The notes: generated by a model not told the origin, from the sequence alone. Shown: positions 1 to 25,800, counted from the stretch's first letter. The stretch: 64,000 bases of DNA from Flavobacteriales bacterium (GCA_040377305.1 JBEIPA010000018.1:1-64000), one strand, 5' to 3'. Numbers and translations: made by a program.

Positions 1-1105
1 GGGAATTAGGAACTCCTGCGGATGGACCAACAACTGGTAAAGTCCAGGTACCTAACATGACTATGTTCAGGTCGCCTAAAGTGGCAGATCCGTTTCGGGT
101 TACAACGAACACATTACTGAAATTTGGGTCGTCAACTTGTCCTCTTGCAACTAGTGATAACACAGGGTGAGAATTGATGGCAGCTACTAACGAGCGTGCG
201 ACATCATCCCCAGAACCTGTACCATCAAAGTCTACACCGGAGATAAGTGTTGTAGTTGACCCAAGTGCCGTGATCGTAACACCTTCAATGTTCGGATTCG
301 GGTTTCCGTTCACATCGAATGAACTAAACACACCTTTACCTTGTAGTATAGTTGCGAGGCGATCGTTTGGTTGGGTAGTATAAACTGGAGTACCACGGCT
401 ATCGATAATTACTACATCACCATCCGAATACCTGTGCTCAAGTACAGTATTGAGATAAGGATAGTATGATGCACCGTAGTTGAGGAAATTTGCCCCAACG
501 TTATCATTTCTAAACTTCGTGGCGTCATCGTTAACAGACGTTCCACGCTCGATAACATCCATGAGCGAAAAGCGATCCTTGAGTTTGTTGCACTGGATCA
601 GCATTGCATCATAGACCTTTCTAATATCCGGATCTCCTGTAGTGATGTTTACCGCTTCTGGTGCGAGCAACAAGGTTACTTCGTCTGTCTCTTCAACATT
701 AACAATCCCGTCAACCAATTTCTGTTCGTCAATTGAAAGAACATTGGTCGTCGTGTTGTAATGATCTGCAGCAACGATATAGCACGTACCACCACCATTC
801 GCATAAAACATCTGTAGATGGTAATACATATTGTAAGGAGACAGTGTGCTTGTACTCGTTGATTCTGTTGTCACCAAAGGCGGAGCAGAGTCTGTCAGCG
901 TTACTTCATATTTTTCCCTGAATGCCCCTCCGAAAATTGCTTCAAACTCCGGAAGCGATTCGATGCGCGTGGATTTATTCAGTGGACCTTTTTCAGTGTA
1001 TCCGATGAATGCAGGAATTGCCGTAGGAACCTGTGCAACCGAAGCCGGAAGTGTTGAGATTTCCTGAACGTAAACTCCTGGTGTTTTTAAATTAGTTATA
1101 GCCAT
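1..1105 (-). CDS. Contractile tail sheath protein 2 (Afp2/3/4-like), truncated by window edge
   Basis: Absent from the ORF track because no stop lies in the window. Hand translation from ATG 1105: MAITNLKTPGVYVQEISTLPASVAQVPTAIPAFIGYTEKG...LQMFYANGGGTCYIV...YGASYYPYL, paralogous to the 564-aa sheath; frame open to base 1. Confidence 0.93.
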   Translation of the reverse strand, partial: MAITNLKTPGVYVQEISTLPASVAQVPTAIPAFIGYTEKGPLNKSTRIESLPEFEAIFGGAFREKYEVTLTDSAPPLVTTESTSTSTLSPYNMYYHLQMFYANGGGTCYIVAADHYNTTTNVLSIDEQKLVDGIVNVEETDEVTLLLAPEAVNITTGDPDIRKVYDAMLIQCNKLKDRFSLMDVIERGTSVNDDATKFRNDNVGANFLNYGASYYPYLNTVLEHRYSDGDVVIIDSRGTPVYTTQPNDRLATILQGKGVFSSFDVNGNPNPNIEGVTITALGSTTTLISGVDFDGTGSGDDVARSLVAAINSHPVLSLVARGQVDDPNFSNVFVVTRNGSATLGDLNIVMLGTWTLPVVGPSAGVPNS

Positions 1106-1134
1106 TGTTAAGTTGTTTTAGAAGTGTGAATAGG

Positions 1135-2829
1135 TTATGCTTCCTGGAGTTTGTGTTCGAATTGAAGTATGATGAATTCGGCCGGACGAACAACTGCCAT
1201 CCCGATCTGAACAATTAAACGTCCTTCGAGAATATCCTGAGCAGTCATTGTTTCTCCGAGGCCAACTTTCACGAAGAATGCCTGTTCTGGTTTGCTGCCA
1301 GCCAGAGCTCCATCCTGCCAAAGGTTGGTTAAGAAATTGCTGATGGTCGATGAAACGCGAACCCAGAGATTCTTGTCGTTTGGTTCAAAGACCGAGAACT
1401 CTGTTGCTTTCTTACACGAGTCTTCTACGAACAGGAAAGTTCGGCGCACGTTAACATAACGCCACTCGTTGCTATTTCCATCCAAAGTTCGTGCACCCCA
1501 TACCAACTGACCGCGCCCTGCGAAAGTGCGCAATGCATCAATTGATTTTCCGGATACAGCATCGATATTGAGACCTTCCTGATCTGAGTCCTTTACGTTC
1601 ACATTAAGTTTAGACACAAGTGTGAGCCCAACATTCGCCGGTGCTTTCCACACTCCCCGATTGGTATCAACCGAAGTGTAGATACCTGCCATCATTGCAG
1701 ATGGATACAATGTAATTGGATGTGAATCGAGAATAAAAAGAATACGATTGTATAACGCTCCATCTGGCGCTAATGCTGCTGGTGATGGTGGATCAACCGT
1801 TATTGTTCCTGAACCATTATCAAGTATCAATATAATATTCAACGGAATACCCTGAGTTCGCGCTGTTAATACCAATTCACCGGGACCTCCTAACGCAACT
1901 GTAACAATTGCATCTGCAGCTGGTGTGGCTTCGATATTCAGTTTAATTGTTGCTGGTGCTCCTGAAGTTAAGTTAACCAATGCACCGTTTACATCAAGTT
2001 GATCACCACTTCCGAATGTGTAACTACCGAAATCCACGGTCCGGGATTCCGCTACTCCTGTGTTAACAGCACTTAAAGTTAAACCATCAAATGCCTGAAC
2101 ATTTGCTGGTAAACCAGCATTGCTCGCATCAATGTTTACATCCGAATCAAGATAGTGGAATGAAAGTGTTGGTGTAAACGACGGGTAATAAGCAGCACCG
2201 TAACTCAGATTGTTCGAGCTCACATCCAGGTTTCTAAATTGTGTTGCATCGTCTGCAATGGAAATACCTCGGACTTTCACATCCAGAATTGCAAAACGAT
2301 CTTGCATCTTGGCACAATGTGCCAGCGCTGCATCATAAATTGCTCGTTGTTGCGAGTCATTGAGTCCAGTCGAAATAGCTTCAGGTACAACAACCATCGT
2401 GATTTCATCAACCTCTTCTGCAAAAGCTATTGCACTTTGCAAGTCAGTGAATTGTATTGGTGCGCTGTAGTCTCCAACAGAAATGACATAACAAGTACCT
2501 CCTCCGTTAGCAAAAAACATTTGCATGTTATAAAACAGGCGGAAGTCCAGACCAGCTGTCGATTCATCAAGTGTCGCTGCAATATCCACTGTTGATCCGG
2601 AAAGTACCACATCAAATGTTTCTTCATACGCCCCACCAAAAATCGTTTGATAGTCCAACATCGTTTCAATGCGCGTTGGTTTATTGAGCAGTGCTGTTAC
2701 ATCACCGTTCCGCTCTGCCTTCTGTGTATACCCGATAAAAACCGGGATAGACGTCGGCACTGGCGCAACCGATGGTGGTAGTGTGGAAATTTCCTGGATG
2801 TAAACCCCAGGGGTATTAAATGTTGCCAT
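1135..2829 (-). CDS. Contractile tail sheath protein (phage tail sheath FI / Afp2-4 family)
   Basis: TPGVYIQEI N-terminus, FFANGGGTCY, RGVWKAPAN, VWGARTL, WRYVNVRR, FEPND and C-terminal VRPAEFIIL are sheath motifs. Confidence 0.97.
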   Translation of the reverse strand: MATFNTPGVYIQEISTLPPSVAPVPTSIPVFIGYTQKAERNGDVTALLNKPTRIETMLDYQTIFGGAYEETFDVVLSGSTVDIAATLDESTAGLDFRLFYNMQMFFANGGGTCYVISVGDYSAPIQFTDLQSAIAFAEEVDEITMVVVPEAISTGLNDSQQRAIYDAALAHCAKMQDRFAILDVKVRGISIADDATQFRNLDVSSNNLSYGAAYYPSFTPTLSFHYLDSDVNIDASNAGLPANVQAFDGLTLSAVNTGVAESRTVDFGSYTFGSGDQLDVNGALVNLTSGAPATIKLNIEATPAADAIVTVALGGPGELVLTARTQGIPLNIILILDNGSGTITVDPPSPAALAPDGALYNRILFILDSHPITLYPSAMMAGIYTSVDTNRGVWKAPANVGLTLVSKLNVNVKDSDQEGLNIDAVSGKSIDALRTFAGRGQLVWGARTLDGNSNEWRYVNVRRTFLFVEDSCKKATEFSVFEPNDKNLWVRVSSTISNFLTNLWQDGALAGSKPEQAFFVKVGLGETMTAQDILEGRLIVQIGMAVVRPAEFIILQFEHKLQEA

Positions 2830-2933
2830 GTTGTGTTTGTTTAGTTTTTGTTTGTGAGTTGATTATGATAAGTGCTTGCCAAAAACAAAATGGCAACGTT
2901 AACTACTATTGAAATGCGGGTTGAGTAATTTCA

Positions 2934-24498: not shown

Positions 24499-24603
24499 GT
24501 TGTTTATCTGTTTATTGGTTCACTATTCCTTGTTCATCGATCATTGTGCGTTGAGCGTTGTTCATTTTACTGTTACTCCTCGTCGCCCGAACTGACCATC
24601 CGT

Positions 24604-25602
24604 TTAAAACTGTAAGAACTCTTTACTCACCCACTTCTCCTCTACTCCTACTCTACACCATCCATTCTCTTCCCGGTAAATAAAAAGTTCCTCGCCTTTT
24701 TTGTAAGAACCTTTCTTCTCGAAATTTGTTCCCGGACCCGTTCGCACATTGAGTGTATCTGCTTTCACAGTTGCTCGTTTTGCCTCGGCAGTATATTTTC
24801 CATGCACCCAGTGATTCATCGATGCTGAAATTTTCAACCAGCCGTCTTTCTCTTTGTACACGCGTAGCACCGAACCCAACGTAGCTGGTTCACGATCCGC
24901 AACTTTGTCAAATGTTGTTCCCGCACCTTTGCGCACATTCAGTGTATCTGCAGTTACATAAGCATAGCGCAATATCGCTGGCGGATTTTCCGGAACAGTA
25001 ATCACACTTCCTGTAGATTTCAGCGCTGTTTTCACGAGCGGAATAAATCCTTTCGCAGCATCTGCCACCTTATTTCCTCCGAAGAAATTTGTACCGGGAC
25101 AAGTTTTGGTTGAACCCGTTCCGTCAGTACGCTTTCCAGTATTCAGATCAAACCAATGATGATACACGACATGATCTGTATCAACTGGTATATTGAACTT
25201 TTTACACAAAGCTGCAGTCATGCGAACAATTGTTGCCGCATGTTCTTTCGTCATTGCATCTTTTCCTGTGTCGAAATTTCCAAAGTGTTCAATGCAGATT
25301 GAATGTGTGTTGAATCCTTTAATTCCCGAAGGCGTCACTTCAAGACTGCGTCCGGTCACAATTGTTCCATCGGGAAAAGTGGTGAATTGCTGTGCGATGT
25401 CAGAGAATCCTCTTTCGATCACATGAAAGTCACGCATCGATTTCTGTCGTTCGAAATGAATATTCCCCTTGAAGTGTTCGTAAGAAGGAATGGCTGTATG
25501 ATGCTCCTGCACCGACTTAATCGTGCGCGCCACACTGATCTTATTCAGCCAGTTTTCAAATTCATCAATTGTGAATTGTGTAAAGCCGTATTTGCTTGTC
25601 AT
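24604..25602 (-). CDS. N-acetylmuramoyl-L-alanine amidase (Amidase_2) with two SH3b domains, no signal peptide
   Basis: EHHT, ICIEHFGNFD, YHHW and KTCPG Zn-amidase motifs; two ADTLNVRxGxGT SH3b repeats. Confidence 0.9.
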   Translation of the reverse strand: MTSKYGFTQFTIDEFENWLNKISVARTIKSVQEHHTAIPSYEHFKGNIHFERQKSMRDFHVIERGFSDIAQQFTTFPDGTIVTGRSLEVTPSGIKGFNTHSICIEHFGNFDTGKDAMTKEHAATIVRMTAALCKKFNIPVDTDHVVYHHWFDLNTGKRTDGTGSTKTCPGTNFFGGNKVADAAKGFIPLVKTALKSTGSVITVPENPPAILRYAYVTADTLNVRKGAGTTFDKVADREPATLGSVLRVYKEKDGWLKISASMNHWVHGKYTAEAKRATVKADTLNVRTGPGTNFEKKGSYKKGEELFIYREENGWCRVGVEEKWVSKEFLQF

Positions 25603-25630
25603 AGTGCATATAGTTTTGAGTGGAAATACC

Positions 25631-25800
25631 CATAACTATATTACTCCGAAATATTGGTTTTTGACAGCCGGTCTATAAATCGCGAAAATTCCTTGCTGTA
25701 AATTTTCGCCCTCTTTTTTACACCTAGTCCGTTGATTTTCAGTGGTGCCAGAAATTCCAATACCTCAATTTCCGTGTAGAAGTGATCGAATTTGTCCGTG
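25631..25800 (-). promoter_or_regulatory. Promoter region of cargo cassette 2, homologous to 7235-7405(+)
   Basis: Minus strand reads CACGGACAA...CACTTCTAC...CTGAAAATCA...ACAGCAAGG...TAATATAGTTATG, at the same spacing as the cassette 1 region. Confidence 0.75.

Follow-up and report, generated by a model that had tools for sequence, protein, structure and literature searches.

The first 25,800 nucleotides of a 64,000-nucleotide stretch of DNA from a Flavobacteriales bacterium (GCA_040377305.1, JBEIPA010000018.1:1-64000; hereafter the window) hold one end of the structural operon of an extracellular contractile injection system (eCIS) and, next to it, two convergent cassettes of likely cargo genes, each with an ATPase of the Afp15 family. 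The window lies at the start of contig C24 in genome G000 (5.18 Mb, 99.99% complete), whose 3659 proteins served as the background set; G and C numbers below denote genomes and contigs. A type IX secretion sorting domain encoded in the window and the identity of most ATPase relatives point to Bacteroidota. An earlier note, made from the sequence alone, had described two sheath genes, a DUF4255 cap and a fibre on the minus strand, followed by cassette 1 (plus strand, 7449-16980) and cassette 2 (minus strand, 25602-17304) with one ATPase each, and our re-derived gene coordinates and strands for the eCIS stretch agree with it. Cassette 1 reads 102 aa, 447 aa, ATPase, 326 aa, 1684 aa and 79 aa; the order in cassette 2 is amidase, caspase, ATPase, calpain, 255 aa, 481 aa and 224 aa. 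The features are as follows.

2..1105, minus: sheath protein B, 5′ part, running off the contig and continuing on C5; 43% to sheath A
1135..2829, minus: sheath protein A, Afp2/3/4 type (PF17482, E 2.5e-15; PF04984)
2934..4271, minus: conserved gene between cap and sheath; relatives have homologues in the same place; no significant Pfam match
4139..4753, minus: cap protein, Pvc16_N/DUF4255 (Afp16; PF14065, E 4e-28)
4766..5074, minus: 102-aa conserved gene of the structural operon; homologues in the same place in G010, G011 and G029
5084..7150, minus: 688-aa first gene of the structural operon; position kept in relatives; no significant Pfam match
7209..7369, minus: two-box cis-element between structural operon and cassette 1, with box A, an integration host factor (IHF)-like site and box B; boxes 89-90 nt apart
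7449..7757, plus: 102-aa gene opposite the fibre gene; homologues in G015 and G011, two paralogues on C10; no hydrophilic leader
7784..9127, plus: 447-aa likely cargo with hydrophilic leader and C-terminal GH73-fold peptidoglycan hydrolase (fold search, leader)
9249..10673, plus: ATPase 1, Afp15 family (PF00004); the open reading frame (ORF) opens at TTG 9207, and ATG 9249 fits the alignment
10685..11665, plus: 326-aa likely cargo with hydrophilic leader (Cys163/His282/Asp303 motif)
11679..16733, plus: 1684-aa likely cargo, polymorphic toxin with a leader of the ATPase-1 clade (KEY...DWY; leader, toxin tip)
16741..16980, plus: 79-aa likely immunity protein; 50% identity to the gene that follows a homologous orphan toxin tip
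16986..17200, no strand: two copies of a ~100-nt intergenic repeat (sequence)
~17230..17266, no strand: bidirectional terminator-like hairpin, 15 bp, A/T tails on both sides (folding versus shuffles)
17304..17978, minus: 224-aa lipoprotein-like gene (N-terminus read from the sequence, position)
17985..19430, minus: 481-aa likely cargo, hydrophilic leader in common with the 447-aa protein (leader; His164/Cys201 motif)
19468..20235, minus: 255-aa lipoprotein-like gene (N-terminus read from the sequence, position)
20259..21236, minus: calpain-family protease, 325 aa (C87, H269, N289; PF00648, E 7e-22)
21329..22744, minus: ATPase 2, Afp15 family (PF00004; 38% to Afp15 over 223 aa)
22741..24498, minus: hydrolase-like N-domain and caspase (C14; PF00656, E 2e-32)
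24604..25602, minus: Amidase_2 and SH3b, no evident signal peptide (PF01510, PF08239)
25666..25825, plus: second copy of the two-box cis-element, before cassette 2; position and orientation kept in G010 and G013

The relative G015 has a convergent layout identical in kind to this one, and near-identical sequence to both cassettes was found in a wastewater and a freshwater metagenome. The public contigs of the probable source run are broken at 17097-17123, within the short repeat separating the cassettes, and the adjacency of cassettes 1 and 2 therefore rests on the genome assembly. The bidirectional terminator that the earlier note had placed at their meeting point corresponds to the 15-bp hairpin at ~17230-17266 (z of -7.2 and -6.3; 0 of 200 shuffles fold equally well), which a consensus terminator scan of the window did not pick up.

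The structural operon, or chassis, is single and complete. The ends of C24 and C5 overlap by 10 nt, and an open frame of 579 codons, that of sheath B, crosses the join. Beyond sheath B, C5 carries two tube genes, Afp7, spike, PAAR, wedge, baseplate J, three large genes and the tape measure; tube and baseplate genes thus adjoin the sheaths, as the earlier note had anticipated. The core set of PMC6899500 (tube Afp1/5, sheath Afp2/3/4, Afp7, Afp8, Afp9, Afp11 and Afp16) was matched by Pfam in full across the window and C5, and the lineage I markers are present (tape measure Afp14, PF19268, E 6e-84; PAAR Afp10, PF05488); judged by gene content, the system is an eCIS. Spike, PAAR, wedge, baseplate, tape measure and cap have one match each in the genome. 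No ATPase was matched on C5, so the structural operon lacks one, and the canonical placement of the ATPase after the tape measure in the structural cluster is not found here. The 688-aa protein is likely the tail fibre, a call based on its position and repeats, although neither it nor a 598-aa candidate for the Afp13 fibre has a significant Pfam match. The gene at 2934..4271 probably starts downstream of the listed TTG, and we infer a structural function for it. Elsewhere in the genome lies an orphan tube gene (C15:15125-15586, 47% to tube 1), with no further eCIS gene seen within 4 kb.

Four Afp15-family ATPases are encoded in the genome, two in the window, one on C1 and one on C10 (ATPase 4), each in a toxin/immunity module; the two-unit system of the earlier note is thereby superseded by four modules. 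Downstream of the C1 ATPase lies the gene for a 1316-aa protein that has an ADP-ribosyltransferase domain; downstream of ATPase 4 come a DUF4157 protein, the sole one in the genome, and lipoprotein-like genes. At 460-490 aa with one AAA domain, none of the four has the ~700-aa long form with N, D1 and D2 domains; they fit the short, Alg15-like type within the Afp15 clade. The 37% identity (over 285 aa) between ATPases 1 and 2 shows that they are not a recent duplicate. Walker A, Walker B and the arginine fingers are intact in ATPases 1-3, ATPase 4 has Walker A and RR, and the Walker B residues D332/E333 are invariant in 31 aligned sequences including all four. In trees with IetA and FtsH as outgroups, from which Alg15 and Pvc15 themselves are absent, the four joined Afp15 apart from IetA and FtsH with support of 100/99 (37 rows chosen from 152) and of 98 on all 152, in agreement with the earlier assignment of both window ATPases to this clade. 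The group of tape-measure-linked ATPases takes in ATPases 2 and 3 (91/96) but not ATPases 1 and 4, and the tree does not fix the position of Afp15.

The distribution of these ATPases follows that of the eCIS. A search with ATPase 2 gave 80 loci, 56 of which have an eCIS structural gene and 69 a structural gene or DUF4157. Among 61 genomes, tallied with G000 and the unpublished G012 included, an ATPase was matched in 26, a sheath in 25 and a spike in 25; all 25 spike-positive genomes had an ATPase match, versus 1 of the 36 spike-negative ones (weak and partial). ATPase matches outnumbered spike matches in 17 of 23 spike-positive genomes (G000 and G012 left out), with the provisos that matches are not copy numbers and that related genomes are not independent. 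For ATPase 2, genome and metagenome scans gave no close orthologue, the best segments being at 43% and 47%. In the N-region, members of the ATPase 1 clade share 43-48% identity with ATPase 1, and sequences outside that clade 13-28%.

Hydrophilic N-termini mark eCIS cargo (PMC11297309). By the hydropathy of the leader, i.e., the N-terminal ~50 residues, the 447-, 326-, 1684- and 481-aa proteins and the C10 cargo fall in the lowest 2% of the 3659 proteins. Amidase, caspase and calpain lie at the 12th, 23rd and 52nd percentiles and thus have no hydrophilic leaders. The earlier estimate of at least five effectors, calpain included, is not borne out as it stands: such a leader is found in four window genes, the calpain lacks it, and the Tae-like and DUF4347-like labels were confirmed by no tool. 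No window cargo matches PF13699 (DUF4157), whose single genome match is on C10.

We grouped the ATPases into seven classes and compared the leaders of neighbouring cargos. Cargos beside ATPase-1 orthologues start with KEY...D...DWY, with or without DUF4157, and other ATPase clades have different leaders. Of 41 cargos, 36 had a leader whose best match in other genomes was of the same ATPase class, and of nine leaders fetched later, seven fit the class predicted from the ATPase, one missed and one came from a clade without a class. Among 49 cargos, unrelated bodies beside ATPases of the same clade gave a median leader score of 86 (115 pairs), whereas homologous bodies from different clades gave 19 (8 pairs, none at 50 or above) and cargos of different clades within a genome 20.5 (42 pairs, none at 50 or above). 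For example, the body of the 1684-aa protein shares 35% identity (725 aa) with a G021 cargo whose leader and ATPase clade are both different. These counts leave out cargos beside ATPase-2-clade enzymes, the unclassed ATPases of G020, G024, G055, G027 and G029, and the 447-, 326-, 481-aa and calpain proteins of the window. Since the first 50 cargo residues follow ATPase type across relatives, each ATPase likely reads its own address tag.

G015 shows the pattern at its clearest, with two ATPases of different clades, six cassette-1 cargos sharing one leader and two cassette-2 cargos sharing another. The match is looser in the window, because ATPase 2 is without an established client and the leaders of the 447-aa (cassette 1) and 481-aa (cassette 2) proteins pair across cassettes: they are reciprocal best N-terminal matches among the 3659 proteins (score 52 versus 40 and 35; pairwise E 2e-4), and both are unlike the 1684-aa leader. 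From their sequences, these two cargos probably use one common loader. The unit of specificity would then be the leader class and not the cassette.

Chassis and modules have a cis-element in common. The motif upstream of the fibre gene occurs, with at most one mismatch, at four sites in the genome, two of them in the window (7238 and 25797) and one each ahead of the ATPases on C1 and C10. In 12 of 14 rows, one site being counted twice, an IHF-like site with at most two mismatches precedes box B by 55-56 nt. In 60 stretches around relatives' ATPases, 10 of 12 two-box matches immediately precede a gene for an ATPase, a fibre or a cargo protein. A model built on nine sites from relatives recovers all four in G000 (E 5e-14 to 3e-6; next match at 0.78), a test that is not fully independent as the nine sites were originally found with a G000-derived pattern. 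The element is oriented toward the fibre gene and the C1 and C10 ATPases and away from cassette 1 and the amidase gene, and likewise in G010, G013, G015 and G023; we infer a bidirectional control element. In the stretches of G016, G020, G021, G024, G027 and G029, no copy was detected at E < 1. As a genome-wide marker, a looser two-box pattern was noise (20 matches in G000 versus 12.3 in shuffled sequence; present in 60 of 61 genomes), and a sigma-54 reading was dropped for spacing that misfits the sigma-54 consensus. No inversion joint between the inverted copies was seen in contigs of four runs, data that are unable to show absence.

Several observations touch on the element. A TTGGCAYG motif at window 7345-7355, just outside box A and facing cassette 1, is kept in G010, G015 and G023 and absent before cassette 2. 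A lone word resembling box B lies at ~21300-21312, between the ATPase 2 and calpain genes, and an 85-codon ORF on the minus strand (25803-26060) without a Pfam match overlaps the end of the second copy. In G008, an identical 80-nt stretch around box B precedes two adjacent ATPase modules of different clades (L044:542-621 and 5081-5160). After the tape measure on C5, a 512-aa MalT-like tetratricopeptide repeat (TPR) protein is encoded (C5:20295-21833, equal to L002:295-1833), with homologues near ATPase modules in six relatives' stretches (E <= 1e-43); it is a candidate regulator of the cis-element.

Part of cassette 2 behaves unlike variable payload. Long matches to the amidase-caspase stretch were found in six other genomes, all sheath-positive, and the element, amidase, caspase and ATPase recur as a unit in G013, G015 and, partly, G007. 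Identity to G015 reaches 91% and 96% over amidase and caspase while the G015 cargos are wholly different, which fits accessory genes; from sequence comparison, both look like conserved accessory genes and not cargo, and the amidase is a possible lysin. In G011 (L283:7762-11079), a caspase gene lies beside the fibre and 102-aa genes together with a metallophosphoesterase gene, with no amidase in the stretch.

We lean toward a model in which one chassis is shared by four ATPase modules and leader-selective loaders feed one particle. The cis-element would co-induce chassis and modules. Each ATPase hexamer would catch its own leader class via a divergent N-domain, unfold the cargo and thread it into the shared tube, and ATPase 1 would load the 1684-aa toxin. 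Lysis would free the particles; bacteria would be the targets, as the GH73 fold and the immunity genes suggest, and amidase and caspase may serve release or regulation. The broader form of this proposal, one syringe with co-regulated plug-in modules, orthogonal loader-leader pairs and an addressing code of at least seven classes, is more tentative, and we incline slightly to doubt it.

Several points weigh against the shared-chassis model. ATPase and cargo genes are physically linked, so leader/ATPase pairs are not independent and a leader could hitch-hike without being read selectively. The seven classes were set from the tree after the leaders were known, and ATPases without a class were omitted. 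In G022, a close ATPase-1 orthologue adjoins a non-matching leader, and several ATPases of G027 and G029 are without a cargo-like neighbour. The leader class of ATPase 2 is not established: a 'D-I-F' class for its clade failed the test, and a profile from three clade neighbours ranked the calpain 366th of 3659. Finally, a single AlgoCIS ATPase loads two native cargos and foreign reporters (10.64898/2026.05.27.728243).

The linkage of ATPase and cargo genes would also be expected if mobile toxin modules carried interchangeable loaders, leader and ATPase co-varying only because recombination places new toxin bodies after a resident 5′ end beside the ATPase. Pore loop 1 is almost identical across all ATPase clades, published signals are described by general chemistry and not by a motif (PMC11297309), and the identical 80-nt stretch before two modules in G008 is a sign of module duplication. 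However, paralogues down to 37% identity over 285 aa are kept together in many genomes, leaders keep to their class in as many as six separate genes of a cassette, some of which lie upstream of the ATPase or apart from it, and none of the eight homologous-body pairs of different clades has a common leader; we consider interchangeable loaders unlikely, but they are the main rival to selective loading. The stricter proposal of the earlier note, two self-contained cassettes in which every enzyme is loaded by its own cassette's ATPase, accounts well for G015, with its six and two cargos, and for the recurrence of the cassette 2 unit. The idea of a dedicated loader stands insofar as leaders follow ATPase clade, but the reciprocal 447/481 leaders cross cassettes and differ from that of the 1684-aa protein. 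Furthermore, amidase, caspase and calpain have no hydrophilic leader, and the ATPase behind the amidase-caspase pair belongs to a different clade in G015. With a leader common to both cassettes and accessory-like amidase and caspase genes, 'self-contained' is too strict, and we regard this form as improbable.

Still less credit is due to the idea that some modules act without a particle, e.g., as IetAS-type units of an ATPase and a protease that serve defence or cell death inside the cell. IteA/IetA is the top NCBIfam and PADLOC match of both window ATPases, ATPases 1 and 4 branch outside the tape-measure-linked group, and caspase and calpain flank ATPase 2. Yet Afp15 itself matches IetA more strongly (E 4e-38), the four ATPases cluster apart from IetA (100/99), their distribution tracks the spike gene, modules and structural operon have the cis-element in common, and relatives' neighbours often bear an eCIS core domain. 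IetA is thus the nearest non-eCIS ATPase family by NCBIfam and PADLOC, but it forms a separate clade, and no S8 peptidase, the partner of IetA, is among the window neighbours.

This system differs from described eCIS loci (PMC6899500, PMC8894135, PMC8213781 and PMC12210884) in the number and placement of its loaders; the multi-copy groups named in PMC6899500 are Afp1/5 and Afp2/3/4 only. No description of several loaders per chassis was found in the literature searched, with most subscription journals and preprint supplements outside its reach. The closest parallel is AlgoCIS of Algoriphagus machipongonensis (clade Ib; Alg15, Cgo1/Cgo2), with a Bacteroidota eCIS gene set, hydrophilic N-terminal cargo leaders and a short ATPase, whose Walker B Glu is residue 292 in Alg15 and ~333 in ATPase 1. 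AlgoCIS is reported with one in-cluster ATPase and two DUF4157 cargos (10.64898/2026.05.27.728243, PMC8894135), whereas here none is in the operon and four are in modules. Alg15 is needed for loading and not present in particles, the N-terminal domain is the loading signal, and DUF4157 is dispensable for AlgoCIS loading (10.64898/2026.05.27.728243). In the clade Ia systems PVC (Pvc15) and Afp (Afp15), the AAA domain is homologous (38% over 223 aa for ATPase 2 to Afp15), but Afp15 has 696 aa and is flanked by tape measure and cap, in contrast to the 460-490 aa outside the operon here, and Pvc15 has N, D1 and D2 domains where these have one AAA domain. Pvc15, likewise needed for loading, acts via the signal peptide, loading proceeding through an N-terminal signal (PMC11495950). 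The BIS ATPase of Parabacteroides distasonis groups with tape-measure-linked ATPases and ATPases 2 and 3 and adjoins a DUF4157 gene, on the other strand from the structural genes, but is the one annotated ATPase in the 24.6-kb stretch examined. Polymorphic toxin systems (contact-dependent inhibition, CDI, and Rhs) also have swappable tips and downstream immunity, and the tip of the 1684-aa protein occurs on a haemagglutinin-repeat protein; here, however, the constant part appears to be a ~50-residue leader tied to ATPase clade.

The question has been raised of whether signal, Pvc15 or both hold the 'keys' (PMC11495950), and the authors of the PROCIS preprint hypothesize that a loading sequence is specific to its AAA+ protein (10.64898/2026.05.27.728243). 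Single-ATPase systems cannot tell chassis from loader; one chassis with four loaders and recognisable leader motifs makes the published question of loader-signal specificity testable. Cargo searches confined to the operon vicinity or to DUF4157 miss such modules, since the window cargos are without DUF4157 and two modules are on other contigs. Tag reading by each ATPase would make the system a natural test of payload choice by phage-tail-like syringes. If the broader form of the model is true, one particle type carries independent payload sets, and the leaders offer orthogonal loading tags for engineered injection systems.

The enzyme labels of the earlier note held up to different degrees. 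The GH73 label of the 447-aa protein is supported by a wide fold search (best Z 9.1, rmsd [root mean square deviation] 2.7, 116 aligned), with glucosaminidase, FlgJ, AtlA and LytB structures in the top rows, and by a catalytic Glu, E298, invariant in 8 sequences. Pfam scores of its homologues are under the cut-off, and Foldseek gave nothing at E <= 0.001. The GH73-like domain is also found on a DUF4157 carrier and, as read from the sequence, on proteins whose cores are Rhs-like. The N-terminal 169 aa occur elsewhere with a different C-terminus; a metagenome scan gave no locus for this N-domain. The polymorphic toxin label is likewise sustained: the C-terminal domain of the 1684-aa protein also terminates a haemagglutinin-repeat protein, and tip and 79-aa immunity gene are found elsewhere as a pair. 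So is the calpain label, with a C2 domain containing Cys-His-Asn; the calpain is a possible cargo whose leader is not hydrophilic. From gene order, the 255-aa gene likely provides immunity to it, and the 224-aa gene likely does so for the 481-aa cargo.

The other two labels draw on motifs. For the Tae-like 326-aa protein, the Cys163/His282/Asp303 motif suggests a papain-fold amidase, unconfirmed, but no family match and no homologue in 400 other genomes or PDB sequences were found, and its single-sequence predicted fold reaches a predicted local distance difference test score (pLDDT) of only 37. For the DUF4347-like 481-aa protein, the His164/Cys201 motif suggests a caspase-fold peptidase, unconfirmed, but it has no Pfam match, no homologue in 34 family genomes and the plasmid set, and atlas leads below 0.9.

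The ~100-nt repeat at 16986-17200 has related copies on C45, on C3 and behind the ADP-ribosyltransferase cargo on C1 (15401), and is possibly a marker of toxin-immunity cassette ends. The C10 paralogues of the 102-aa gene at 7449-7757 (C10:46301-47116) have N-terminal extensions and lie beside a collagen-repeat gene, ~7 kb from ATPase 4. Unrelated to the eCIS, an M4 thermolysin-type peptidase with PKD, GEVED, CUB and type IX secretion system (T9SS) domains is encoded at 30789-34235.

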